From: an uncultured bacterium
GTDB taxonomy: Bacteria; Patescibacteriota; Minisyncoccia; Minisyncoccales; Minisyncoccaceae
DNA: 24,000 bases
Direction of reading: 5' to 3'
Assembly (NCBI GenBank): GCA_963802195.1
Contig: CAWDHP010000003.1
Location: 19,456 to 43,455, forward strand
The notes beneath the pieces are model-generated. The model searched no databases and was not told the origin of the DNA. It worked only from the letters and a program-made list of their open reading frames with translations. Position numbers and translations under genes: made by a program. Position 1 is the stretch's first letter. Each line of letters starts with the position of its first letter. This document shows, in pieces, positions 2,704-18,480 of the stretch.

Positions 2704-3186
2704 TTATGGTTCCCAATATTCCCCGCTTCTTAATATTTTTCCTACTCCTATCTTACCATCAAATACAATAATTTCCACTCTTGCCTCTCGAAGCATCGCA
2801 AAAGCAAAGTCTATATCCTCTTGCCAGTGTCCATTCCTATCTAAAGCTTGTTTGTGGATCACTAGCTTTTTAATGCCAGCTTGAATTATAGCTTGAGCAC
2901 AATCACTACATGTTGCCCAGGGACAAACCATAGTGAGTCCTTCTGTTTTTATTCCTAATCTAGCGGCAGAGTAAATAACATTCCTTTCGGCATGAACGCT
3001 GTATTTGTATCTTATGGCTTTATCGTTTTGCCTTTCTTCTGTTTCAGCTATCCCGTTAGGAAAATTATTAGTCTCTGAAAGAATAATATTTTGATTATCG
3101 TCAATTAAAATAGCCGCATTCTGCGTTGATATATTAGTGCTTTTTTGAGCTTTTTCGTATGCTATTTTAAGGAGTTGTTGCCACAT
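2704..3186 (-). CDS. CMP/dCMP deaminase (deoxycytidylate deaminase-like)
   Basis: HAERNVIY (H-A-E) and CPWATCSDCAQAI (PCxxC) zinc-ligand motifs of the cytidine/deoxycytidylate deaminase fold. Confidence 0.8.
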   Translation of the reverse strand: MWQQLLKIAYEKAQKSTNISTQNAAILIDDNQNIILSETNNFPNGIAETEERQNDKAIRYKYSVHAERNVIYSAARLGIKTEGLTMVCPWATCSDCAQAIIQAGIKKLVIHKQALDRNGHWQEDIDFAFAMLREARVEIIVFDGKIGVGKILRSGEYWEP

Positions 3187-3380
3187 GCTGTGATGGTCAG
3201 TCTGGAACCCCTAACCTTCAATCAGTGTAAGAGTTATTTGACTATTTAATATTGATTAATTTGAAGGGTCTCAGTCGGGATAAAATGAGACAAATGAGAC
3301 AGTATAAAAGGATATGTACCCTGTCTCGTGGACACTGTCTCGTTTTTTATAACTTACCATAATTTTTATCTTTGTGAAAG

Positions 3381-3418
3381 AATTGTAAGTAAAAAAAGAA
3401 GGAGATTTTTGATATCGA
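3381..3418 (-). terminator. intrinsic terminator after the radical SAM gene
   Basis: On the minus strand, AGGAGAT (3418-3412) pairs with ATCTCCT (3396-3390) and is followed by a TTCTTTTTTT tract. The same ATCTCCTTCTTTTTT tail recurs at 8769-8784. Confidence 0.6.
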
Positions 3419-3454
3419 AGTATCTCCTATGATTAACTTCGGAAGCTTAAAGCT

Positions 3455-4702
3455 TCAACCCTTAACTGTTTCCCACCCTTTTGGCAATGGCCAGAAAAGA
3501 TGGTTTTTCGCGTAAAATTTGAGATCGGCTAACGTGGGCGCGATGCGGTGGTTATTGAATAAGACCGATGTCTCAAATTCACAACCAACAGTTATTGCGA
3601 CATCTTCAGTCGCGACCTCATTTGGAGGTAACTCGACGAGGTACCCTTCCTCGGTCACGCGAATAGACAAAGGATGGTATCCCAACCATGTGAGGTATTT
3701 TTCAATCTCATCTGGATTAACTTTCCTCCACTGGCCGAGTTCTCCTGAGCGGGATAGGTTGTTGCGATTATATGCAATCGGCATACTGAACTCATCCCGA
3801 TACAATGTACCTGTATGCCGATGAACCCTAACATCGTACATGATTGAGGCACAGAGGACCGCCTTTTCAGCTTTTTCAGACAGCCAGTTTTTCATTTTGT
3901 AATACTGGTGTCCGCCCGGACTTGATTCTTCGTTTTGGTTGCCGTCGAGGAATCCTGTCTCGCGAAGCTTGTCGTTTTCGGGAGTAATGCCGAGATTTCC
4001 GATACTGCAACCACGATAGGTCAGAAATCTGATTCCCATCATTGCCAAATCGAAAATCGTTTCGACGCCCTTCATAACGTTATTATCGTTAAGTGGTCCA
4101 AGCATGACGGAAATCCGTCTTGGGGAAATTCCGGCATCGAGAAGCATCTGAAGACCCTCCAGTTGCTGTGGCGACTTAATCGGACTTCCCCTGAACTCTG
4201 GGCTGTCAGGCGTGATTGTAGTGCTAAACACTACACGAGGGTCATCCCCCCACGCTTCAAGCTGTTTTTGCCCGAATGGGGCACGGTGCAGAACGAAGAC
4301 TGGACTTTTGTGCGGAAATATCCGTAAAAATTCCGTAATTTCATTTACCTGCATGCTTCCGTCAGACCGAGCAGCCAGCATGATAATATCTCGGCCAGCC
4401 TTGAATAATTTGGACTGTTCAAGGAATCGTACCGCCTGTCTTGGCGTTGCAATCTTGCGGAGGCCTTTTCTGCCCTTCCCGATAGTATCAACAGAATTGT
4501 TGATCCATCGGTAATAACAGAAGTCGCACCCGATGGTGCATCCCATGATAAGGTCTCCATCCCAAGTGTACCGCCGTTTATAAAACGGAGCGGGGCAGAC
4601 TTGGCATTCTCCTTTCCATTCTGGCGGGGTGCCACCTAATAAAAGGTGTTCTCCGTTGACTATATCTGCCGCCCTTGCGGCTGAGAAATCTTCAAAAGAC
4701 AT
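3455..4702 (-). CDS. radical SAM enzyme, SplB/COG1533-like (spore-photoproduct-lyase-like family)
   Basis: MGCTIGCDFCYYRW contains CxxxCxxC in the GCxxGCxxCYxR context typical of SplB-like radical SAM proteins. AGGAGG lies 6 nt upstream of the ATG. The start abuts the upstream stop (TAAATG). Confidence 0.75.
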   Translation of the reverse strand: MSFEDFSAARAADIVNGEHLLLGGTPPEWKGECQVCPAPFYKRRYTWDGDLIMGCTIGCDFCYYRWINNSVDTIGKGRKGLRKIATPRQAVRFLEQSKLFKAGRDIIMLAARSDGSMQVNEITEFLRIFPHKSPVFVLHRAPFGQKQLEAWGDDPRVVFSTTITPDSPEFRGSPIKSPQQLEGLQMLLDAGISPRRISVMLGPLNDNNVMKGVETIFDLAMMGIRFLTYRGCSIGNLGITPENDKLRETGFLDGNQNEESSPGGHQYYKMKNWLSEKAEKAVLCASIMYDVRVHRHTGTLYRDEFSMPIAYNRNNLSRSGELGQWRKVNPDEIEKYLTWLGYHPLSIRVTEEGYLVELPPNEVATEDVAITVGCEFETSVLFNNHRIAPTLADLKFYAKNHLFWPLPKGWETVKG

Positions 4703-6457
4703 TTATACCTCCTGTCCCAAAATTGGGGCAATTTCTTTTTTCAATTTACGACCAAGACTAATGGTCTTCTTTGGAGTGATTCCGAACGTACGCATATAGG
4801 TCAAGCGACTAAGGCGTTCATCGGAATTATCCTTGCGGCCGTCTTTGCCGTAAAGAGCAGAAAGTCCATCATCAAGCATTTGGGCTGCGACACCATCCTG
4901 GTACGCAGCTTTGCAAATACTTTCAGAGCATCCTAATGCTTCAGCAATCATCAGCCGGAAAGAAGCCTCCTTCATCACTACCTTGCCCCAGAGTTCTGTC
5001 TGAGTCAGCTCGGTACTGAATTTAGGATTTTCTATTTCTACTTCAAGTCGAGCTGCGAGAATTACTTCACGAACGCGCTCCTCGAAAGTGGTTATACCGA
5101 GTTCGACGGCGATATTTCTTGCTCTTCCAAGGTCGTATGCCGCCTGCTCAATAGTTTGCCATACTCCGTTGATTACCCAGAACGCTGGCGCATAGTCACG
5201 GACTTCGTCCTCATCAATGAGGTCGTCCATGATTTTGAATGCCTTGCGCAGGTGTTCAACAAGCTGGCAGATTTCCTCAACATCCTTTTCGTTCCGTTTT
5301 CCAAGAACAGAGAGTTTTCTCACTTTCTTGGCGTAACTTCCGGAAGTCGGGACATCTATCCATGGCCGCGGGTTTTCAAGACTCTTTTGGTAGAAAGAGT
5401 CGATTGCCCCGACTTTTTCTAACCAATCCATTCTATTAACCTCCACTTTTGTAGCTCCGCGATTCTTTGCCACTTGCACTGCAGCTTGCTGCACAAGCTT
5501 CTTCGTGGCCTCGACTGATTTAGAGGCGAATATCCACGATAATACTTCGTGCATTCCGGAAATTAACCTGTCAGGAAGATTGATGTGGCAAGTATTACCT
5601 TCGTATTTTACCGAACACCCTGTGGTCTTGACGGTAAAGTCAGCAAAGCTCACCACATCAAGGGCGCCGATTTTGCGTAAGAGCTCCAGACGTTCCGAAT
5701 CAACAGAATCGTCAAAGTCCCCGCGCCTCTCAGCTTCCCTCTGTCGTTCATCTTCATCTCTCCTAACAGAGATAACGATTACTGGCCGTTGTAAAGCATA
5801 GCTCGCGTATATGATTTGTTCGCGAGACTTGATGCCATCAACAACCATGAACGGCGAATCGTCATTTACCGAAGAAACAAACCTGCGGGCGACAACAATT
5901 TTGTCTTTCGCCTCAACCTCTTCGGTGAAGCACTGGACATTGGTCCAATTCATTTCGCCATAACGGGATTCTATCTCCTGCTTTACATAGTCTCCCCATT
6001 TGTAGACGGAGAATCCGTCCATCTGGGAAAAAATGTTCCGCAGAAGTGTCTTCCCTGATGCGGGCAGTCCGACCAGTGCAATCATGTACTTATCAATGTG
6101 ATAAGTATCTTGCTCTGATACACTTTCTTTCGGCACAATCCCCTCTTTCTTCAAGAGGTAATTTTGATGTCGATACGCCAGCAATGTTTTTTCGTTGCCG
6201 ACATACTTTACCGGCCCCTTAATACCTAAACTCCTTAACGATTTCTCGACATGGAGCTGGGTTAAGGCCGTGGTCAAATTCCGGTCAAAGACAAGAATCT
6301 CTCCGTACTTCTTTTTTTGTGGAAAGTTCCACCAGGTTACTTCCCTCTGATCCATGCGAGAGAAGTCTGCAATTGCAACCTCCCATTCGGGAGAAAGAAT
6401 ATTGCAATTCAATAACTCCACGCCTGACTTGGCGATTAAAACCGCAAGGGTTTTCAT
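4703..6457 (-). CDS. fusion protein: unknown N-domain, P-loop nucleotide kinase (adenylate/dephospho-CoA-kinase-like) and a divergent polyprenyl-synthase-like C-domain
   Basis: Walker A in IALVGLPASGKT. The block VVDGIKSREQ...RRDEDERQREAERRGDFDD resembles small archaeal-type nucleotide kinases. The C-terminal MDDLIDEDEVRDYAPAFW (DDxxDxxxxR...P) and GVAAQMLDDGLSALYGKDGRKDNSDE resemble the two Asp-rich motifs of trans-prenyl synthases, with the second degenerate. I prefer the ATG at 6457 (GAGG 7 nt upstream) over the TTG at 6499 used by the ORF track. Confidence 0.6.
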   Translation of the reverse strand: MKTLAVLIAKSGVELLNCNILSPEWEVAIADFSRMDQREVTWWNFPQKKKYGEILVFDRNLTTALTQLHVEKSLRSLGIKGPVKYVGNEKTLLAYRHQNYLLKKEGIVPKESVSEQDTYHIDKYMIALVGLPASGKTLLRNIFSQMDGFSVYKWGDYVKQEIESRYGEMNWTNVQCFTEEVEAKDKIVVARRFVSSVNDDSPFMVVDGIKSREQIIYASYALQRPVIVISVRRDEDERQREAERRGDFDDSVDSERLELLRKIGALDVVSFADFTVKTTGCSVKYEGNTCHINLPDRLISGMHEVLSWIFASKSVEATKKLVQQAAVQVAKNRGATKVEVNRMDWLEKVGAIDSFYQKSLENPRPWIDVPTSGSYAKKVRKLSVLGKRNEKDVEEICQLVEHLRKAFKIMDDLIDEDEVRDYAPAFWVINGVWQTIEQAAYDLGRARNIAVELGITTFEERVREVILAARLEVEIENPKFSTELTQTELWGKVVMKEASFRLMIAEALGCSESICKAAYQDGVAAQMLDDGLSALYGKDGRKDNSDERLSRLTYMRTFGITPKKTISLGRKLKKEIAPILGQEV

Positions 6458-7148
6458 TCTAAACCTCGTAATCGTAAGTTGCCATGTTTCAGGCAACAAA
6501 CTAAAGATGTAAATCTCCAGATTGTTACCTGAAACTCTACCTATTTAATTTTCAAACAGCATCCTCCTGCTTCTCTCGGCTCCAATCTCTCCATTGGAAG
6601 CCGAGAGTATAGCAAGGAGGTTTCTGGAAACGAAGCGGGTTAAACTTCCTTTCCAGCCAATCTCCCTACTAGAAGACGGCAAACGATATTAGCCAGTTGA
6701 TAATCTTTTCATTTATACTCTCTCCAGTATGATGACGATTACCTAACATTCTTGCTAAAAGCTAATATCGGACAGGCAGTAATTGGTGTTTTACTGCTTT
6801 AGGACCTTAAGTCTATCACCATAATAGACTTTCGTTCCTTTGATTTTTAACAAAGAGCTATTCTTCTCGAAATTCTTCCGAGAAGATTTTTAAAGATTTT
6901 ATCTTTAACATATCTTTCCGCAAAAAAACGGCTGAGAAATCTCTTCAAAGGACAGACTCAAGATAGAATCCTTCCTTAAAAGAGATCTCCCAGCCGTTCG
7001 AATAAACAACTAGTATCTATTACTCCATTCGGAATGCAGACAGACCTCAGCCTGATTCCTTATCCCTTTCGGGAAAGAAGTAACGGGTCCATTATTTAAC
7101 CTCGCGGACGAGCGAAGAACTAACATCTAATTTAATGAACTCACTTAC
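6458..7148 (-). ncRNA. large structured leader RNA, copy A (paralogue of 10445-11180)
   Basis: About 690 nt between the promoter at 7155-7183 and the kinase-fusion ATG, with no conserved ORF. Hairpins are dense, including a long hairpin at 6929-6996 followed by U7. The core 6614-6846 aligns with 10575-10785 and shows compensatory stem changes. The 5' end is inferred from the promoter only. Confidence 0.5.
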
Positions 7149-7154
7149 ACGATA

Positions 7155-7183
7155 ACTATATACTACTATCTGCTTCTTGTCAA
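7155..7183 (-). promoter_or_regulatory. sigma70-type promoter driving leader A and the kinase-radical SAM operon
   Basis: Minus strand reads TTGACA (7183-7178), a 17-nt spacer, then TATAGT (7160-7155). Confidence 0.65.
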
Positions 7184-7190
7184 CCCCCAA

Positions 7191-7199
7191 TTATCCACA
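7191..7199 (+). promoter_or_regulatory. perfect DnaA-box 9-mer TTATCCACA, 7 nt upstream of the -35 element
   Basis: Exact match to the consensus TTATCCACA. The same 9-mer occurs at the same spacing at 11223-11231 and 11338-11346. Confidence 0.45.
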
Positions 7200-7317: not shown

Positions 7318-8523
7318 TTAAACATTTTTTACTGTAAATCCAGCATTTTTGAATCCCTCAGCCAAGGACGTTGGTTCATCCTTAATCTGAATATCGTTAA
7401 GACCGAAGATCTTTTCAATCTCGACCTTGGATGGAGTAATGGGTGTGATTCCGTCCCATGGCTCCGTGCGAATGCCGTTGGCTACCCACCGTACATAGTG
7501 GTGGATTCCTCCGGCATTAGCGAGTACATAGGATGTTATTTCTCCATCCTTGTACTCTATCCACGCAGAGTGCCAATCGGGCGCTTCAACGATAGCTAGA
7601 ATACTCTCGCTGTTGAATGGTCTCTCGCAGGATTCCTTTATTCGGGTGATACCCGATTCAGAAATTTTCTCGAACCGGTAGCGCTTGCCACCACCCGGAC
7701 CGATGCAGAGAGATATTAATGCTTTCGTGCCAGGAATCAGTGTGCCAGCTTGCACACTGCTGACGCCACCGATCTTATCGCCCATGACGACGGGAATGGC
7801 AATGCCCCAGTTTTTTACGGTTTGCTCTATCGGTTGCCACTGTGTGAAGTGGTTAACCAGAACATTCATTTCGGGGCTGATTGCTTCCTCAAGTTCTTCT
7901 GCTAGTTTAATCGCGGACTGAACGTCCTCGTGAAGCTCTCCAGTAAACTGCTTTACAACTTCCGTTACCTCGGGATTATCATCAGTGGCGATTGTTTGGC
8001 AGAGTTCTTCGCGGGTCATTGCGACTGCGTTGAAACTCCTAGTCACAATGAGGTAGCGCTGACCGTAGCCTTTGTATGATCCCCCGCAGATGTTCACGAT
8101 GAACACCGATGGAGATTCAATATGCCACAGCTCATCAGTTCCGCCACCAATTCTACCGGCATCGCCGAAGGCATAAGAACCAGTGACTAACAGTTTAGCT
8201 TCGCCACCCTTGTGGACGACATTACCCTCTGTCCCACGGGTGTACGTTCCATACGTGTTTATTCGTATGAGTACACCGCGTTGGTTGGGGTTGCTTTTGG
8301 TCAATATGCAATGCTTCCTTTCCTCCCCAAAGAGGAAATATCCGACATCATCGGGTCCGGACGGTTGTTGTCCGGAACGATTAGAAATTCGGACTTCTTC
8401 AAGCCACCGGCCTCGGCCAGCCTCTCCCAAAGAGAACGGAATCTCCTGGGTCCTTCCGTGCATGTCAATTATTTTCATTCCTTTCACTCCATTCTTGCCC
8501 CTAAAGCGTATCTTCGTGGGCAT
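7318..8523 (-). CDS. hypothetical protein (386-401 aa), no recognisable family
   Basis: Long intact ORF in GC-rich cargo. The start is either ATG 8523 (no SD) or ATG 8478 (GGAGTGAAAGGA upstream). Gly-rich loops are present (GDAGRIGGGTD, CGGSYKGYG, GPGGGKRY). Confidence 0.6.
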   Translation of the reverse strand: MPTKIRFRGKNGVKGMKIIDMHGRTQEIPFSLGEAGRGRWLEEVRISNRSGQQPSGPDDVGYFLFGEERKHCILTKSNPNQRGVLIRINTYGTYTRGTEGNVVHKGGEAKLLVTGSYAFGDAGRIGGGTDELWHIESPSVFIVNICGGSYKGYGQRYLIVTRSFNAVAMTREELCQTIATDDNPEVTEVVKQFTGELHEDVQSAIKLAEELEEAISPEMNVLVNHFTQWQPIEQTVKNWGIAIPVVMGDKIGGVSSVQAGTLIPGTKALISLCIGPGGGKRYRFEKISESGITRIKESCERPFNSESILAIVEAPDWHSAWIEYKDGEITSYVLANAGGIHHYVRWVANGIRTEPWDGITPITPSKVEIEKIFGLNDIQIKDEPTSLAEGFKNAGFTVKNV

Positions 8524-8768
8524 GAATTATGTTTGCTCATTAAGAGCGTACAATTTTAAAATATTATTTAAGACTGTGCGCTCTCAACAAACTCTATTTA
8601 AAGAACTATTATCAATTAAATCAGCAGTGAACCGTAAAGCAATTAGCGAGGGGTTTGAATGTATTATATTCTGGAGAGAGATTAGAATATATCCAATACC
8701 TCTCCTGCTTTACGGATCGCTACTGATTGTTTCTCAATTCTGAATCCACTTTTATTAAAATGAACTCG

Positions 8769-8816
8769 GAAAAAAGAAGGAGATAATGTTTAAACATTTA
8801 ACGGGTCTCCATCTCC
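8769..8816 (-). terminator. intrinsic terminator after the P-loop NTPase gene
   Basis: On the minus strand, GGAGAT (8816-8811) pairs with ATCTCC (8784-8779). The inner palindrome AATGTTTAAACATT is followed by TTCTTTTTTC. The 5' arm overlaps the stop codon. Confidence 0.5.
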
Positions 8817-9403
8817 GTTATCAGCCAATCTGCAAACTGACTAATAATACCCTGATAGGGATCCTTTGGACCGTCTCGGTCCAAATTACAGATAATCCCT
8901 CGAATGGGTTCGGCAGAAAAATCCGCCGAAGATCCTACATTGTTATCAAGCGTCCCATCCGCCCGCTTGATAAGCCGAGACTCAAATAATGCGAGAGTCT
9001 CACACCCTTCTTCTTTGGCAAAATTCTGCCAAAGCTCATTCTCTTCTTCTTTCGAAGAAAGAAGAATAAGGTGCGTTGACCGCTTGAGAATCTCGGCATT
9101 CTCAGCAGTCCGTCTTCCCCCAAGATCTAGGAGGACCAAGGGAAACGATTTTCCCAAGTTCTCAATGGACTTCAGAGTGAAACCCATGAATTCTTGAGAA
9201 AATGCTCCTTTCCTCCGAATTTCAGAGACAAGGCGCGGGTCAGTCTCTGCTGACCACATACCTTCTCCATCGGGACATGCCCTTTGGAGAAAGACTCTCG
9301 TTGCCTTCCTTGCCAAAAGCTGACGATATAGCTCGGCAAGGAAGACTGACTTCCCTGAATGTGGAGGCCCTCCCACGGCCACCACCATTTTTTTAGTGGC
9401 CAT
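8798..9403 (-). CDS. P-loop NTPase of the type found fused to Csx3 (Csx3-associated AAA/kinase-like)
   Basis: Walker A in VAVGGPPHSGKS and Walker B in LVLLDLGG. AAGGAGG SD. The gene lies directly downstream of the Csx3 gene. The link to Csx3-AAA fusions is recalled from the literature, not searched. Confidence 0.65.
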   Translation of the reverse strand: MATKKMVVAVGGPPHSGKSVFLAELYRQLLARKATRVFLQRACPDGEGMWSAETDPRLVSEIRRKGAFSQEFMGFTLKSIENLGKSFPLVLLDLGGRRTAENAEILKRSTHLILLSSKEEENELWQNFAKEEGCETLALFESRLIKRADGTLDNNVGSSADFSAEPIRGIICNLDRDGPKDPYQGIISQFADWLITEMETR

Positions 9404-9462: not shown

Positions 9463-9765
9463 TTACTCAGGGAACGGTATTACATTTCCGACCTGCTGGT
9501 CGGGAGAGTGGGTGGCAACGACCACTGCGCCAAGGCGCGGATCGCGAACTGCCAACCACGGTGTGGCATGGGCAGCATGCACTAACATGCTGTATAGCCA
9601 TACCGGACCCCGTCCGTCAAGGACGATCGGGGTTTCTCCACCGAGCTCACCGAGCTCAGTGACCGCTTCCTGAGATTCCTGGGGAGTTGTTACTCCGCCC
9701 GGAATCTCGAATCCTACCACCCGGATGCCGTTAGCATCACGGGTGGAAAATACTGGTTTCGACAT
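9463..9765 (-). CDS. csx3: Csx3 (Crn3) family protein, distant-CARF ring-nuclease fold
   Basis: LDGRGPVWLYSMLVHAAHATPWLAVRDPRLGAVVVATHSP closely matches the block I recall from A. fulgidus Csx3 (SGRGPIWLHCFLAHKYHHTPFVAVYDPRLGAVVVQSHS). I prefer ATG 9765 (GGGAGG 9 nt upstream) over the TTG at 9792. Confidence 0.7.
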   Translation of the reverse strand: MSKPVFSTRDANGIRVVGFEIPGGVTTPQESQEAVTELGELGGETPIVLDGRGPVWLYSMLVHAAHATPWLAVRDPRLGAVVVATHSPDQQVGNVIPFPE

Positions 9766-9954
9766 TTTCCATACCTCCCGTTTCACCTTCAACGGGGACT
9801 TTGCTCTGCATCATCAAAAGGTGACTTTGATGATGACTCCCTTCATGGGAAGCGAGCTGACTACTTTTATAAATAATCAATTCGCTTTCCATAAAGCAAG
9901 AGTTAAATATTCAAACCTATTTTCCTTTTAATGAGCAACTTATATTTTACAATT

Positions 9955-10007
9955 CTGCTTTTCGTCCTTTTGGACTCATCAGCTCGGATACACATCCGAG
10001 AAAGCAA
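9955..10007 (-). ncRNA. type III hammerhead ribozyme (HHR-2)
   Basis: Minus strand reads UUGCU-UU/CUCGGA-UGUGUA-UCCGAG-CUGAUGA-GUCC-AAAA-GGAC-GAAA-AGCAG. The core is identical to HHR-1. Stem III is UUGCU/AGCAG. Predicted cleavage is after U10001. Confidence 0.85.
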
Positions 10008-10060
10008 TTTGAAGAGGAAGTTTTATATAGCGAGCCCTCTTCGTACCCGCTTTACCCTGG

Positions 10061-10444
10061 TTACCTTCCAGTCGGGAAAATAACCATTTTCCAGGGATCC
10101 TCCCTGTCTGAAACATAGACAGGACGGAATCCCTTCTCCTCTACGACCTTCTGAAAGGCCGGGAGGAGAAACCCTGCCTCTGGCGGGAAGTCCATTAGGA
10201 CCTCCCTCGTTGCCTCATCGGCAAAGAGGAAGGCCTCCTTCATGGCCCTTCCCAGCCAATCGCCGAAACGCTCTGCGCGCTCGACGATTTGTTGCCCTTC
10301 CACCACGTCCATGTGGCGGAAGAGAATCATTTCCTCCAGTTCCACCCGCAGGTGGACTGGAACTTCAGTCAGCGAAAATCGCTGGTGAAGTTTCTCCGCT
10401 CCCTCACGGGGGAGCGGGCTTACCCTTAAGATACTCTTCTGCAT
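10061..10444 (-). CDS. hypothetical protein (127 aa)
   Basis: GC-rich intact ORF. I prefer ATG 10444 (AAGGGGAG about 10 nt upstream) over the TTG at 10495. No recognisable motif. Confidence 0.5.
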   Translation of the reverse strand: MQKSILRVSPLPREGAEKLHQRFSLTEVPVHLRVELEEMILFRHMDVVEGQQIVERAERFGDWLGRAMKEAFLFADEATREVLMDFPPEAGFLLPAFQKVVEEKGFRPVYVSDREDPWKMVIFPTGR

Positions 10445-11180
10445 AATAATGACTCCCCTTCTTTTTCGGTAGAAGTAAACCGGTGCTTTTTCCAAGCAAC
10501 AATCTAGAGATATAAGTCTACAGATTGTTACTTAGAATGATTTTAAAATGAACCACTGACACTCCCTATCTCGTAAGGAGGTTTCTGGAAACGAAGTGGG
10601 TTAGGCCTCTTTTCCAGCCGATCTCCTTACTAGAAGAACGGTATACGATTTTTTAACCTTAGGCCATAACTCTCTCCAGACTTTCTTTGTCGCCTAAAAT
10701 TAATATATCGGACAGGCAAGCAATTGGTTTTTGCTGCTTTAGGACCTTGACCTATCACCATAATAGATCGCGTTCCTTTGATTTTGGTTTAAAGAACTAT
10801 ATCTTCTTTCTTGCGAAAGAAGGTGATGGATATGAGTCTTGTATTGTTTTAGCTCATTTCCATAACTTTCCTTCGTAATATATTGTAAAAGAGGGGGGAG
10901 ATTCAGAGTCCTAGGTGTAAACCCAAGGTTTAGGACGCTGTTCGGCAAGTCTCCCCGCTGCCGCTTCCGAATGGGTCTTCGGAAGAAAGTGGTAAAGATG
11001 ATACATATTCATCTCCACAACTTTCTTTCAAAAGAAAAAGGGGTAACAAATGTTGGGATACTGCATGAAAAGAGTACCTCAACACTTATTACCCCATAAC
11101 GGAATTAAAAGCGTTTATTGGCAATGCCTCTCTCCTTGCATTGACTTGGCTTATTTAATTTTTAATAACTTCATCCTAAC
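10445..11180 (-). ncRNA. large structured leader RNA, copy B (paralogue of 6458-7148)
   Basis: About 735 nt between the promoter at 11187-11215 and the ORF127 ATG. The core 10575-10785 is homologous to 6614-6846. Two long hairpins are followed by U-tracts (about 11036-11095 and 10895-10956). ORF-track ORFs in this region are not conserved in copy A. Confidence 0.5.
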
Positions 11181-11186
11181 AACTAT

Positions 11187-11215
11187 ACTATGACATACTA
11201 TCTATTTTCTGTCAA
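11187..11215 (-). promoter_or_regulatory. sigma70-type promoter P1 for leader B
   Basis: Minus strand reads TTGACA (11215-11210), a 17-nt spacer, then CATAGT (11192-11187). Confidence 0.55.
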
Positions 11216-11222
11216 GCTCCAG

Positions 11223-11231
11223 TTATCCACA
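11223..11231 (+). promoter_or_regulatory. perfect DnaA-box 9-mer TTATCCACA, 7 nt upstream of the P1 -35 element
   Basis: Exact 9-mer at the same spacing as at 7191-7199. Confidence 0.45.
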
Positions 11232-11301: not shown

Positions 11302-11330
11302 ACCATAGCATAGTAGTATAATTATGTCAA
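11302..11330 (-). promoter_or_regulatory. sigma70-type promoter P2 (tandem with P1)
   Basis: Minus strand reads TTGACA (11330-11325), a 17-nt spacer, then TATGGT (11307-11302). Confidence 0.5.
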
Positions 11331-11337
11331 CACTCAG

Positions 11338-11346
11338 TTATCCACA
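11338..11346 (+). promoter_or_regulatory. perfect DnaA-box 9-mer TTATCCACA, 7 nt upstream of the P2 -35 element
   Basis: Exact 9-mer at the same spacing as the other two copies. Confidence 0.45.
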
Positions 11347-11451: not shown

Positions 11452-12759
11452 ATGGAACGAATAATAAAAAGTATAAGTCAGTCCCCTATTCTTGATGCTC
11501 CAATCAAGTATTGTCTCTATGCTAGGAAATCGACTGAAGCGGAGGACAAGCAAGCTCTTTCAATAGAATCTCAAGTAAAGGAAATGTTATCTCTAGCCGA
11601 AAGAGACAACTTAGATATAGTTGAAATTAAAAGAGAATCGCATTCTTCAAAGGAAGTCGGACAAAGAGTAGTTTTCAACGAAATGATTAAAGAAATAAGA
11701 GAAGGAAAATATAATGGAATATTAACATGGGCGCCAGATAGGTTAAGCAGAAATGCTGGGGATCTAGGATCGATAGTAGATTTGATGGATCAGAAGCTTC
11801 TTATCGAAATAAGAACATACGGACAGAAGTTTACCAATAATCCAAATGAGAAGTTTCTTTTAATGATATTAGGCTCTCAAGCCAAACTAGAGAATGACAA
11901 TAAAGCAGTCAATGTTAAGCGAGGATTAAGGACTAGATGCGAAATGGGATTAAGACCAGGAGTTGCACCGACTGGCTATCTGAATGAAAAGCATGTTGAT
12001 AAGAAATGCCAATGCAGAATAGATTCTAAAAGAGCACCTATTATTAAACAGATGTTTGAAAAGGTGGCCAACGAGCAATGGAGCGGCAGGAAGATATTCC
12101 GATGGCTGATTGATATTGGATTCAAGACTAAAACCGGCAAGCCTTTAGTTCTTGCCAATATTTATCTCATCTTAAGAAATCCTTTTTATTATGGAGAATT
12201 TGAATACCCAATTAAAAGCGGTAATTGGTATATTGGTAAACATGTTCCGATTATAAATAAAGAGCTGTTTGATAAAGTGCAAATGACCCTCGGTGATAAT
12301 TTCATACCCAAAACAGAAAGCAAGGAATTCGCTTTTACCAAATTAATCAAATGCGGATATTGCGGATCAGGAATATCAGCTGATGAAAAGTTCAGAAAAT
12401 TAAAAAACGGCGGTACTAACCGTCATGTCTATTATTTTTGTACCAAGGCGAGAAATATTGATTGCAAAAATCAGCCGATAGATGAGGCAAACCTAATAAA
12501 CGAACTAGCAGAACTTGTAGACAAGATTGATTTAGATGAACTAGGGATAAGGGATAAAATTGAAAAAGAATTAATGAGATTTAATAAATTTAGAATCGGA
12601 GTGCTTGGGCATAAAAAAGAAGTAAGCAATTCAGATATTGATATCCGTAACTATGCTAAGTATTTATTAAAAGAAGGAACAATTACCGAAAAGCGAGAAC
12701 TCCTATCATTTTTAAAAAGTAAACTGGTATTAAAAGACAGAAAGATTATTCTTGGATAA
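11452..12759 (+). CDS. large serine recombinase (resolvase/invertase N-domain, recombinase domain and zinc ribbon)
   Basis: YCLYARKSTEAEDKQALSIESQ carries the catalytic Ser motif. Also present are GILTWAPDRLSRN and a C-terminal CGYCG...YYFC zinc-ribbon-like motif. The gene is AT-rich (line 12181-12240 has 17/60 G+C) and has no SD, so it is host-like, unlike the cargo. Confidence 0.85.
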   Translation: MERIIKSISQSPILDAPIKYCLYARKSTEAEDKQALSIESQVKEMLSLAERDNLDIVEIKRESHSSKEVGQRVVFNEMIKEIREGKYNGILTWAPDRLSRNAGDLGSIVDLMDQKLLIEIRTYGQKFTNNPNEKFLLMILGSQAKLENDNKAVNVKRGLRTRCEMGLRPGVAPTGYLNEKHVDKKCQCRIDSKRAPIIKQMFEKVANEQWSGRKIFRWLIDIGFKTKTGKPLVLANIYLILRNPFYYGEFEYPIKSGNWYIGKHVPIINKELFDKVQMTLGDNFIPKTESKEFAFTKLIKCGYCGSGISADEKFRKLKNGGTNRHVYYFCTKARNIDCKNQPIDEANLINELAELVDKIDLDELGIRDKIEKELMRFNKFRIGVLGHKKEVSNSDIDIRNYAKYLLKEGTITEKRELLSFLKSKLVLKDRKIILG

Positions 12760-12770
12760 GATTGCTAACT

Positions 12771-12799
12771 AAAAATCACTGGATAAACCAGTGATTTTC
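12771..12799 (+). terminator. intrinsic terminator after the recombinase gene
   Basis: AAATCACTGG (12773-12782) pairs with CCAGTGATTT (12788-12797) around the loop ATAAA. The stem is flanked by A and T runs. Confidence 0.6.
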
Positions 12800-12837
12800 A
12801 TGTATGCATCTCAGTCACCTGACTTAGCATAAGACGG

Positions 12838-12908
12838 CTGCGGGACTAGGATTCGGACCTAGATTGGGCGAGTCAAAGTCGCCAGTCCTACCGTTAGACG
12901 ATCCCGCA
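12838..12908 (-). tRNA. tRNA-Gln (anticodon UUG)
   Basis: Manual cloverleaf: acceptor UGCGGGA/UCCCGCA with the U1-A72 pair typical of bacterial tRNA-Gln; D arm GUCU-AACGGUA-GGAC; anticodon arm GGCGA-CUUUGAC-UCGCC; T arm CUAGG-UCCGAAU-CCUAG; discriminator G. CCA is not encoded. The T-loop reads UCC instead of the usual UUC. Confidence 0.8.
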
Positions 12909-12911
12909 ATA

Positions 12912-13592
12912 TTATAATGATTTTTCGCAAATACCTTCTATCCATCCAGTAATCATTCTATTAAGGTTAGTACTTTTATTAACCGTAACTCGTATTAATC
13001 CATAATAGTTGTTACCAGTATTTTTTCTTATAGTCTTTATTTTACTTTTCTTCAAGTAGGTCCTAATTTTTTTCGTTGATATTGAAAGAATATTAGACCA
13101 GTATACTTGAGCTCTTTTTATGTCAGCTGTTTCGTGAATATATAATTCGTAGACTAAGTCAGAACTATTTATCGAAAAGCTATTTTTTAACCATTTTATA
13201 AAAAGTAAAATCATTTTGGGATCAGAATTACTAAACTTAACTCCTGAATTTTTTCCATTTTCTTTTTCCTTTGATCCTTCAGCCCAATATAATGCTACTC
13301 CTATTAACCATAAATTTTCTTTATTAATACTTTTTACCTCCTTTCTTGCTTTTCTTTTTATCTCTTTTGTGATTTTTATTCTATTTCTTCTTCTAGCCGC
13401 TGCACCACGCAATCCACCTTCAATTCTTTTTTGGGTAGTTCTTTGGAATTGAGCTTTGGCTAATCCTACACTTCTTAACCATAAAGATAAGGTAGATCTA
13501 GCTATCGGTATTTTTTTCAAAATTTCTGAATAAGAAAAGCCTTCTTTTCTAAGTTTAATTGCTTTTTCTTTTTCTTCAATTTTAGGTATCAT
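12912..13592 (-). CDS. HTH-domain protein with possible LAGLIDADG-like homing-endonuclease domain
   Basis: The N-terminal EGFSYSEILKKIPIARSTLSLWLR is HTH-like. LWLIGVALYWAEGSK resembles a LAGLIDADG-type motif (weak, recalled). The stop codon is 3 nt from the tRNA-Gln 5' end. Confidence 0.45.
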   Translation of the reverse strand: MIPKIEEKEKAIKLRKEGFSYSEILKKIPIARSTLSLWLRSVGLAKAQFQRTTQKRIEGGLRGAAARRRNRIKITKEIKRKARKEVKSINKENLWLIGVALYWAEGSKEKENGKNSGVKFSNSDPKMILLFIKWLKNSFSINSSDLVYELYIHETADIKRAQVYWSNILSISTKKIRTYLKKSKIKTIRKNTGNNYYGLIRVTVNKSTNLNRMITGWIEGICEKSL

Positions 13593-17024: not shown

Positions 17025-18480
17025 ATGAAAATATATAATACTTTAACTAAAAAGAAAGAAGAATTTAAATCAATTAAAGACAAAGAAGTCGGAATCTACA
17101 CTTGTGGACCGACTGTCTACTGGTTTGCTCATATCGGCAACATGAGAGCCTACCTTTTTGAAGACACTTTAAAGAGAGTTTTAATATACAATGGATACAA
17201 GGTTAAGCATGTGATGAACATTACTGACGTTGGACATTTAACTTCTGATTCTGATTCAGGAGAAGACAAATTAGAGAAAGGAGCTAGGAAAGAAAGAAAA
17301 TCAGTTTGGGAGATTGCCCAGTTCTATACAGACTTCTTCAAGAAAGATTTAAAATCTTTAAATATTATTGATCCAACTATTTGGGTAAAAGCAACTGACA
17401 CTATCCAAGAGCAGATAGATTTGATTAAAGAGATGGAAAAGAAAGGATTCACTTACATCACTAGCGATGGAGTATACTTTGATACTTCTAAATTAGAGAA
17501 ATATGGAAGACTTATGGGGAGAAAGTGAAAGAACAGAAATGAAAGGCAGGATTGAAGAAGTAAAAGAAAAAAGAAACAAAGCCGACTTCGCTCTATGGAA
17601 GTTCAGTCCTAAAGATGAAAAGAGACAAATGGAATGGGAATCTCCTTGGGGAGTTGGTTTCCCTGGCTGGCACACTGAGTGTGTGGTGATGAGTGTAAAC
17701 AATCTAGGGATACCTTTTGATATCCATTGTGGAGGAATTGATCATATCTTTATCCACCACACTAATGAAATCGCCCAGGCTGAAGCCGTATACAACAAGC
17801 CAATGGCTAATTATTGGATGCACGGAGAATTCCTTAATTTAAAAGATGGGAAGATGTCTAAATCAGCAGGAACAATCATTACTCTTGAAACATTAAAAGA
17901 AAAAGGAGTCAGTCCCCTTGCCTATCGCTATCTATGTTTGAATACTCACTACCGAACTAAATTGTTTTTTAGTGATGAGAGCCTTGAGTTCGCTGAAACA
18001 AGCCTAAGCAAGCTTTACGAAAAAACAGTTGAACTATCTAGAAGTGAAAAGACACCCCATTCAAAGAAATATGAGGAATACAAAAAGAATTTCCTTGAAT
18101 TCATTAATGATGATTTAAATATTCCTTCTGCCCTAGCCTTAACTTGGGATATGATTAAGGACAAGAATATTACTGATTCAGAGAAATATGATTTGTTAAT
18201 TGATTTTGATAATGTCTTTGGTTTGAAACTTGCTTCAATTAAATCAGAAGATAATCTAACTGATTCAAAGTATATTATCAAAACAGAAAAAGATGGCATT
18301 CCTGTTTGGACTAGCGATACTAGTATTGTTCCTGAAGACATAATGAAACTAGTTGAAGCAAGAAACGAAGCAAGGAAGAACAAGGAATGGGATAAATCAG
18401 ATGAGGCAAGAAAAGAGATAGAAGAGAAAGGATGGCAAGTAGAAGATTCAGGAGAGAAGACAGTCATTAAGAAGAAATAA
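17025..18480 (+). pseudogene. cysS: cysteinyl-tRNA synthetase, interrupted by a single-base frameshift at the GGGG run 17516-17519
   Basis: The N-part has [15 protein letters not shown] (HIGH-type motif). The C-part has RNKADFALWKF, PGWHTEC and KMSKS. Two ORFs (17025-17528 and 17503-18480) are in frames 0 and +1. Deleting one G restores ...[20 protein letters not shown]... Confidence 0.85.

Follow-up and report, generated by a model that had tools for sequence, protein, structure and literature searches.

A predicted type III hammerhead ribozyme at a cassette boundary in a mobile island of a Patescibacteria genome

We analyzed a 24,000-nucleotide (nt) stretch of contig CAWDHP010000003.1 from an uncultured bacterium of the Minisyncoccaceae (Patescibacteriota); we call this stretch the window. 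From about 3.4 to 11 kb, its GC content is 0.41–0.48, versus 0.30–0.36 in the chromosomal genes (dnaX, a cysK-like gene, cysS, a glycosyltransferase gene, and dnaB). The high-GC island appears to be a mobile element, marked by a large serine recombinase gene beside tRNA-Gln. On the minus strand, the features run in this order: two promoters, a leader (leader B), the open reading frame (ORF) ORF127, the hammerhead motif HHR-2, an untranslated region (UTR), csx3, an ATPase gene, ORF401, a second hammerhead motif (HHR-1), a third promoter, another leader (leader A), and ORF598. On the 3' side of ORF598 are a gene for a radical-SAM-like protein and then, outside the high-GC stretch, one for a dCMP-deaminase-like protein. 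Our subject is HHR-2 (Table 1). In the explanation that we favor, and that we consider likely as a whole, HHR-2 functions as a type III hammerhead ribozyme and cuts a multi-gene minus-strand RNA at a cassette boundary.

On the minus strand, HHR-2 reads UUGCUU-U^CUCGGAU-GUGU-AUCCGAG-CUGAUGA-GUCC-AAAA-GGAC-GAAA-AGCAG (the caret marks the predicted cleavage site), which matches the sequence and coordinates given in a first-pass annotation of this DNA. Besides the exact consensus of the CUGAUGA strand, HHR-2 has GAAA (G12, A13, A14, and A15.1) at 9963..9960, and the nucleotide at the cleavage site (H17) is U10001 rather than G. The pairs next to the core are all standard: A9960-U10002 (A15.1-U16.1), G9975-C9964, and C10000-G9983. 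Mispairing at these core-adjacent positions was the rejection rule of Perreault et al. 2011 (PMC3088659). Loops close stems I and II, whereas stem III is open (7, 4, and 6 base pairs [bp], respectively; stem I has 6 bp if the closing U-A is assigned to the loop), and one of the stem III pairs is a G-U (U10007-G9955). The minimum-energy fold of the isolated 59-nt HHR-2 RNA is a three-way junction, and a rule-based descriptor of type III hammerheads matched the window twice and had no match in 2000 dinucleotide shuffles of it. Together, these results support the view that HHR-2 has all of the sequence and structure features of a type III hammerhead. Two independent assemblies of this strain, found by looking up identical Csx3 proteins, likewise have U at H17, so U17 is real and derived and is not an assembly error. 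(The look-up returned contigs of the same strain only, which are useless for covariation.)

Table 1. Features of the window, and of three other loci with Csx3-related genes beside a hammerhead (these are named by locus)
Feature	Coordinates	Strand	Basis or remarks
HHR-2, complete type III hammerhead	10007..9955	minus	sequence, three-way-junction fold, model R1
HHR-2 predicted cleavage site	between U10001 (H17) and C10000	minus	
HHR-2 stem III 5' strand UUGCUU (16.6 to 16.1) and H17 = U	10001..10007	minus	pairs with AAGCAG, 9960..9955
HHR-2 stem I hairpin CUCGGAU-GUGU-AUCCGAG	9983..10000	minus	7 bp and 4-nt loop
HHR-2 core strand C3 U4 G5 A6 U7 G8 A9 (CUGAUGA)	9976..9982	minus	exact consensus
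HHR-2 stem II hairpin GUCC-AAAA-GGAC	9964..9975	minus	4 bp, G10.1-C11.1 pair
HHR-2 core G12 A13 A14 and A15.1, then stem III 3' strand AGCAG	9955..9963	minus	
HHR-1, sister copy; predicted cleavage C7247/C7246	7201..7253	minus	RF00008 34.1 bits, R1 65.8 bits
ORF127, gene upstream of HHR-2	10061..10444	minus	ORF list
Hairpin GAAGAGGG...UCCUCUUC	10011..10042	minus	in 316-nt context fold; sequence kept in L356, L357, and L358
Conserved structured UTR, HHR-2 to csx3	9766..9954	minus	92% identical in L356, 82% in L276/L359
csx3 (Crn3/Csx3 ring nuclease family)	9463..9765	minus	PF09620 E 8.7e-23; TIGR02579 82.2 bits (cut-off 55.4)
Csx3-AAA type ATPase-like protein	8798..9403	minus	PADLOC Csx3/Csx3-AAA models, E 2.6e-38 to 3.7e-32
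ORF401, last gene of hammerhead-bracketed block	7318..8523	minus	replaced by two unrelated genes in L356
Two sigma-70-like promoters, each after TGTGGATAA	11330..11302 and 11215..11187	minus	10/12 positions each, extended -10 TG; repeat family D1
Third promoter module, right after HHR-1	7155..7183	minus	11/12 positions; repeat family D1
Large serine recombinase	11452..12759	plus	Resolvase, Recombinase, and Zn_ribbon_recom domains
tRNA-Gln beside serine recombinase	12836..12908		Rfam tRNA match
L277: Csx3-like gene and hammerhead	2526-2828; hammerhead 2889-2946	plus (gene)	
L282: Csx3-like gene and hammerhead	3311-2943; hammerhead 2903-2846	minus (gene)	
L241: hammerhead and Csx3-type ATPase gene	hammerhead 7379-7436; ATPase 7617-7988		

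To test, without circular reasoning, whether HHR-2 belongs with known hammerheads, we scanned IMG/VR for the hammerhead core with the stems left free, kept type III candidates, aligned them (alignment A1), and built a covariance model (R1). A1 and R1 represent 44 hammerheads from phage contigs with a 7/4/4/4 architecture, and none of these is from the window. Under R1, HHR-2 scored 64.1 bits (E = 1.1e-16) and HHR-1 scored 65.8 bits (the E-values are about 1e-16 to 1e-17), while the next-best site in the window that is not a hammerhead scored 12.7 bits. Changes on both sides were seen for 14 of the 17 pairs, in A1 and also in an alignment of hammerheads from genomes (A4). In A1, 94.9% of the paired cells can pair, versus 68% after shuffling (about 95% versus 66–68% for the two alignments); A4 was fitted to the model, and A1 was pre-filtered for pairing, so its percentage is partly built in, but the variety of pair types is not. 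The results support the membership of HHR-2 in a large hammerhead subfamily with covarying helices. The phage hammerheads have the same element lengths and the same NAAA pattern in loop II as the window copies, but their cleavage site is nearly always GUC and their 16.2-15.2 pair is nearly always G-C, whereas the copies from the window and from other genomes of the Candidate Phyla Radiation (CPR) have CUC, UUC, UUU, and others. Across the subfamily, both the NAAA of loop II and the U-R pair that closes loop I are kept; for hammerheads to cleave fast at low Mg2+, these two loops need to make a tertiary contact. We considered pairing of loop I (GUGU) with loop II (AAAA) as a pseudoknot and dropped it, as complementarity is not visible by inspection.

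The sister copy, HHR-1, lies 2.75 kb from HHR-2 in the same orientation, so that the two bracket three genes. It is located 64 nt past the stop of ORF401 and directly abuts the next promoter. The first-pass annotation had described the two hammerheads as nearly identical, and indeed just one base differs in the 41-nt span that runs from stem I through GAAA. This is the A/G that closes loop I (U-A in HHR-2 and U-G in HHR-1, paired in both). H17 was also correctly given as C in HHR-1 (7247) and U in HHR-2 (10001). Stem III had been described as differing by a compensatory change next to the core. As claimed, HHR-1 has C-G at 16.2-15.2 and HHR-2 has U-A, but there is more to the difference than a single compensatory swap: relative to the UUGC/GCAG block that the copies have in common, HHR-2 has one extra U-A pair, and the outer pairs are shifted by one register and are all still paired. 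This is best read as the insertion of one base pair with a register shift.

We identified three relatives of ORF127 (E <= 0.001): an identical sequence, a 69%-identical protein from Minisyncoccales, and a 99-amino-acid (aa) fragment. The Minisyncoccales genome with the 69%-identical protein (locus L356) has an island that is syntenic with the window and has 86–88% nucleotide identity. This is the nearest island, and the cysS of the window resembles cysS from a Patescibacteria genome; both findings make a host in the Patescibacteria (CPR) most likely. R1 finds hammerheads at both of the matching positions in L356 and past the ORF127 homologs of two other loci (L357 and L358). Where HHR-2 has U at H17, the orthologs have C. 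The other changes relative to HHR-2 are U-A to U-G at the pair that closes the loop, G-C to G-U at one pair of stem I (in L356), AAAA to GAAA in loop II, and, in L358, G-C to A-U at the 16.4-15.4 pair of stem III. Every one of these substitutions fits the hammerhead structure. Furthermore, in the comparison with L356, the non-coding parts are better conserved (92.5% identity for HHR-2, 92% for the UTR that follows it, 98% for HHR-1, and 90–98% for the leaders) than the genes (71% for ORF127, 81% for csx3, and 76% for ORF598). A blastn search of HHR-2 against 50,697 records of cultured phages gave zero matches.

To survey genomes, we used the pattern GTGT-N7-CTGATGAGTCCAAAAGGACGAAA, which places no constraint on stem III or on the 5' strand of stem I. 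The variant (loop I GUGU, stem II GUCC-AAAA-GGAC) occurs at at least 119 genome loci (L237-L355). Among the matches listed (which is the scope of all the counts for genomes that follow, unless stated otherwise), 93 of the 119 loci are named as Patescibacteria, mostly Saccharibacteria; we consider this skew to be a lead and not a measured enrichment. A rule-based finder identified a complete type III hammerhead at 113 of the loci, with 131 ribozymes and 95 different stem I hairpins, and the stem I architecture of 7 bp and a 4-nt loop is present in 120 of the 131. In the 100 sources searched with R1, there were 126 matches at E <= 1e-5. The 16.2-15.2 pair is U-A in 47 hammerheads, C-G in 41, and G-C in 37, and H17 is U in 29 of 131; given this spread, both of the window copies are typical. 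The exact pattern was found in only 12 contigs from IMG/VR and in zero records of cultured phages.

Most of these hammerheads follow a co-oriented ORF (74 versus 18 in genomes, or 74/92, and 46 versus 1 in viral contigs, or 46/47), and the median distance to it is 81 nt for the genomes and 34 nt for the viral contigs. Two or more copies are present at 16 of the genome loci, and several genomes (L255, L303, L314, and L321) have arrays with a spacing of 400–1000 nt. The upstream ORFs seldom match Pfam, and they include two Csx3-like proteins (L277 and L282) and one similar to STIV B116 (a viral ring-nuclease family). The downstream ORFs are mixed, with housekeeping genes among them. Overall, genomes of Gracilibacteria, Saccharibacteria, and Parcubacteria have a type III hammerhead immediately next to a Csx3-like gene or the gene for a Csx3-type ATPase. 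The literature that we searched included no paper that links hammerheads to Patescibacteria or Saccharibacteria.

What might HHR-2 do at this locus? ORF127 ends with its stop at 10061. From there it is 60 nt to the cleavage site (10001/10000), in agreement with the spacing in the first-pass annotation, and 53 nt to the start of the ribozyme. The gap between HHR-2 and csx3 is 189 nt. Both the identity of csx3, which had been named as the downstream gene, and the presence of a 10-bp hairpin in its 5' UTR (at 9835..9809) are borne out. The promoters at 11330 and 11215 are the likely source of a transcript through ORF127 and HHR-2. In the interval from ORF127 to csx3, no strong promoter or terminator was detected, although the promoters of a CPR host may depart from the sigma-70 consensus. 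Because the site lies between the two genes on their coding strand and no strong promoter or terminator was detected, the best reading is that cleavage by HHR-2 would separate the ORF127 message from the csx3 message. We infer transcription through the site, cleavage in the cell, and an effect on the fate of the mRNA.

In the mechanism that we propose, a transcript would start near 11215 or 11330 and run through leader B, ORF127, and HHR-2. After all three stems have formed, self-cleavage would take place after U10001. Of the two products, the upstream one would contain leader B and ORF127 and would have a 2',3'-cyclic phosphate at its end, ten nt past the hairpin at 10042..10011, which would become its 3'-terminal hairpin. 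The downstream product would contain csx3, the gene for the Csx3-type ATPase, and ORF401, and its 5'-hydroxyl would be flush against the 7-bp hairpin of stem I. In bacterial mRNA decay, a base-paired 5' end hinders nucleases that depend on the 5' end, and a 3' hairpin hinders 3' exonucleases, so both cleavage products could be stabilized and become independent of each other. HHR-1 would likewise cut after ORF401, just ahead of the next promoter. In this way the pair of ribozymes would punctuate the transcript of the island at cassette boundaries and give each cassette its own RNA ends, stability, and translation.

Similar arrangements are known from other bacteria. Perreault et al. 2011 (PMC3088659) described several hammerheads that flank genes or small groups of genes near integrases, with variable gene content, and reported that native transcripts of about 2 kb were cleaved in vitro. 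Their multi-hammerhead arrangement, such as the triple around ardA in Agrobacterium tumefaciens, resembles the window in that co-oriented ribozymes surround a gene block beside a recombinase. (In the window, a co-oriented pair surrounds three genes near the serine recombinase, and the last of these genes is replaced in L356.) Also, in both cases, the bracketed genes vary and include a likely counter-defense gene (the ring nuclease in the window and the anti-restriction protein ArdA in Agrobacterium), and processing of a long transcript has been proposed. The window differs in its host, which is an ultrasmall member of the Patescibacteria (Minisyncoccales-like), in that both of its copies are type III, and in that cleavage is predicted from sequence.

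Bacterial twister ribozymes also lie between or after accessory and phage-related genes, and effects as 3' UTRs and the processing of multi-gene RNAs have been suggested for them, but their fold and catalytic core are unrelated to those of the hammerhead (review PMC6765202). According to the same review, the role of bacterial hammerheads, which were found in 2011, is still unresolved. Another self-cleaving element of bacterial mRNAs is the glmS ribozyme, whose 5'-hydroxyl product decides the fate of the downstream message. glmS depends on a ligand and lies in the 5' UTR of one conserved gene, whereas HHR-2 has no visible ligand-sensing part, and its predicted 5'-hydroxyl abuts a hairpin, which should hinder a 5' exonuclease rather than invite one. 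Self-cleavage of multi-gene RNAs at cassette boundaries was already known for prophage hammerheads in 2011. Our finding will not surprise a specialist. What is modestly new is the host group, the recurring neighborhood of ring nucleases, and the apparent abundance of the variant in Patescibacteria. The locus also offers a natural series (a ribozyme pair around a ring-nuclease block, orthologs with U or C as the cleavage base, and relatives with either flank swapped) that suits direct tests of the idea that ribozymes punctuate cassettes.

Several observations weigh against a functional ribozyme that separates the two messages. First, the Rfam model for type III hammerheads (RF00008, Hammerhead_3, clan CL00010; gathering score 48.5) gives HHR-2 only 21.3 bits, with a misregistered alignment; HHR-1 is correctly aligned and is also below the gathering score. 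At the gathering scores, an Rfam scan of the whole window returned two tRNAs only, and scans by E-value added sub-threshold matches to Hammerhead_3; the leaders and the UTR matched no family. The first-pass annotation had named a covariance score below threshold as grounds for refutation, and the outcome is split: the score is below threshold for RF00008 and well above the rest of the window for R1. We attribute the low score to the RF00008 model and not to the RNA, because the subfamily model, which contains no window sequences, gives 64 bits. RF00008 and the window copies have in common the catalytic core, the open stem III, the loop-closed stems I and II, A15.1-U16.1, G10.1-C11.1, and an H17 that is not G. 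They differ in that the window copies have a 7-bp stem I with a GUGU loop, a 4-bp stem II with an AAAA loop, and U-A or C-G at 16.2-15.2, which is G-C in the model (GAAAC). They also differ in host: viroids, satellites, and eukaryotic repeats for RF00008, and a bacterial genome island here. At its gathering score, the Rfam model fails to capture this subfamily, so hammerheads of this kind are probably under-annotated in genomes of Patescibacteria.

Second, in minimal hammerheads U17 cleaves more slowly than C17, so HHR-2 may cut less completely than its orthologs (which have C) or HHR-1. The UUU cleavage triplet is also in the minority, with 7 of 112 in the genome set. Third, csx3 may have its own promoter within the conserved UTR, as CPR promoters may differ from the sigma-70 consensus. 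Fourth, in the minimum-energy fold of a 316-nt context, the 5' strand of stem III pairs with AAAGCGG upstream and stem III does not form.

This last observation could also mean that cleavage is gated. That is, UUGCUUU might pair with the upstream AAAGCGG (about 10049..10043) during transcription, which would delay cutting and regulate the ratio of joined to separated ORF127 and csx3 RNA. The alternative helix appears in the 316-nt fold with stems I and II still formed, a compatible AAGCGG is kept in L356 and L357, a slower U17 would widen the time window, and regulated cutting was raised for slow phage variants by Perreault et al. (PMC3088659). However, the centroid structure has neither helix, L358 keeps the ribozyme without the upstream complement, no element that would bind a ligand or a protein is evident, and energy-model folds of long RNAs are unreliable. 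Overall, we consider gating to be rather unlikely.

The mosaic relatives of the island bear on a role at the level of DNA. In another Patescibacteria genome (L276, which is from the same organism as L359 and L360), a segment of about 170 nt is similar to the window (82% identity); it begins inside the ribozyme core and extends through the 10-bp hairpin. The two differ in the downstream gene and the upstream region, and also in stem I and the 5' strand of stem III. With L358, the window shares the upstream region as well as the ribozyme; the similarity stops just past stem III, and an ATPase gene and then csx3 follow. In L356, the ORF401 cassette (8597-7294 in the window) corresponds to 11840-13234, where there are two unrelated genes instead (174 and 233 aa), and the similarity resumes about 40 nt ahead of HHR-1. 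These breakpoints place the ribozymes at or beside several module-exchange points. Also, because the same ribozyme and UTR precede an unrelated gene in another genome, the link to csx3 is not specific; among the relatives, a more consistent neighbor is the 3' end of a co-oriented upstream gene.

Might the motif, which is palindromic, be a recombination hot spot or a cassette boundary in DNA, like attC in integrons, with RNA cleavage being incidental or lost? The breakpoints at or beside the hammerheads and the adjacent serine recombinase would fit. But the unpaired bases of the core are invariant while the helices covary freely, and the G-U pairs (U10007-G9955, the U-G that closes the loop in HHR-1, and the one in stem I of L356) are pairs only in RNA, and only on this strand. 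The hammerheads are also strongly biased in strand with respect to the upstream gene, and no hammerhead lies at the left end (near 8597) of the cassette that was replaced. Finally, ordinary homologous recombination predicts breakpoints at a conserved 50-nt sequence. We therefore judge a DNA-level role to be quite unlikely.

The presence of two hammerheads raises the possibility of a circular RNA: both could cut to excise the 2.75-kb RNA of csx3, the ATPase gene, and ORF401, whose 5'-hydroxyl and 2',3'-cyclic phosphate ends would be joined, as in viroids and eukaryotic retrozymes. Cleavage by two hammerheads leaves ends that are chemically ligatable. Both copies are type III, they are directly oriented, their stems I and II are identical, and their stem III strands have UUGC/GCAG in common. 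However, a chimeric stem III (the 5' strand of HHR-1 with the 3' strand of HHR-2) would be out of register, with a bulge next to the core, and this offset is kept in L356; with stem III offset by one pair, the hammerhead halves are not interchangeable, as they are in retrozymes. The fragment is also long and protein-coding, and Perreault et al. (PMC3088659) looked for splicing or circularization of bacterial multi-hammerhead transcripts, with a negative result. We consider a circular product to be very unlikely. It is just as improbable that HHR-2 is a decayed relic or a chance look-alike without a present function, as the low Rfam score and the unusual U17 and UUU triplet might suggest, given the E-value of about 1e-16 with an independent model, the lack of matches in 2000 shuffles, a core without mutation, better conservation than the flanking genes, a compensatory change among the orthologs, and U17 in 29 of 131 relatives.

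Returning to the punctuation of transcripts by self-cleavage, the proposal might extend well beyond this island. HHR-2 could belong to a family of type III hammerheads that occurs throughout the Patescibacteria in multiple copies and whose members follow accessory genes (repeatedly ring nucleases of the Csx3 or B116 type, and often in gene-plus-ribozyme arrays), and the family might serve as a general separator of messages for acquired cassettes and as homology for the shuffling of cassettes. We put this forward tentatively, as a possibility that is more doubtful than not.

The other parts of the transcribed region are as follows. ORF127 and ORF401 had zero matches in Pfam, NCBIfam, PADLOC, PHROG, or the PDB, and ORF127 is not similar to the ORF that precedes the hammerhead of L240, an unrelated metagenome-assembled genome. 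The fold z-score of the 316-nt context of HHR-2 is -5.4. For the UTR, a three-sequence RNAalifold gave a long hairpin and the 10-bp hairpin, with only two compensatory pairs. The 82%-identical copies of the UTR are at L276 4260-4410 (minus strand) and L359 4584-4735 (minus strand), ahead of an unrelated gene, and a metagenome scan with the UTR hairpin sequence returned two further contigs of the L276 organism and four chance matches. We dropped a 10-codon ORF in the UTR (MKGVIIKVTF, kept in L276), as it has no ribosome-binding site and its substitutions are explained by hairpins that tolerate G-U pairs.

All three of the strong promoter modules have TGTGGATAA, a perfect DnaA-box-like 9-mer, a few bases 5' of the TTGACA of the -35 element. 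These copies are on the minus strand at 7189-7197 (which begins 4 nt past HHR-1), about 11221-11229, and about 11336-11344. The two leaders (10445-11170 and 6500-7150, minus strand) have about 300 nt in common, at 73–89% identity. Within them is a motif of nested helices, GUAAGGAG..CUGGAAA..GGCCUAACCCACUU..UUUCCAG..CUCCUUAC, at about 10640-10571 and 6680-6610, and a third copy, with compensatory changes, is in L240 (7085-7015, minus strand), where an ORF and then a hammerhead follow. This motif had zero matches to Rfam families and may be an undescribed cis-regulatory RNA. Each leader also has a long, terminator-like hairpin with a run of U, about 150–220 nt past the promoter (6925-6995 and about 11035-11095, minus strand), which suggests that the operon is preceded by an attenuator, a riboswitch-like switch, or a small RNA.

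As for the ends of the island, in L356 a 74-nt sequence from the tRNA side (12767-12840 in the window) has a second copy at the other end of the island (17343-17411), which is consistent with the attachment-site repeats of a serine-recombinase element. In the window, the second copy of this repeat is absent, as is the Bro-N gene that follows it in L356. The gene cluster at 2704-6499 (minus strand) encodes ORF598 (598 aa, kinase-like and polyprenyl-synthase-like, and two genes in L356), the radical-SAM-like protein (415 aa), and the dCMP-deaminase-like protein. The Pfam matches of the first two are weak and below the cut-offs, and defense-system models match only the deaminase domain of the cluster; its role could be in the synthesis or modification of nucleotides.

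Two observations concern other genes in the window. cysS is split into two overlapping ORFs (17025-18480, plus strand), which match profile positions 2-145 and 150-299 plus the C-terminal domain, respectively; cysS is intact in L356 (481 aa), and the split is a frameshift or an assembly error. On the minus strand, a nucleotidyltransferase gene (1144-1686) adjoins a gene for a HEPN-domain protein (689-1147), which is the layout of MNT-HEPN toxin-antitoxin systems.

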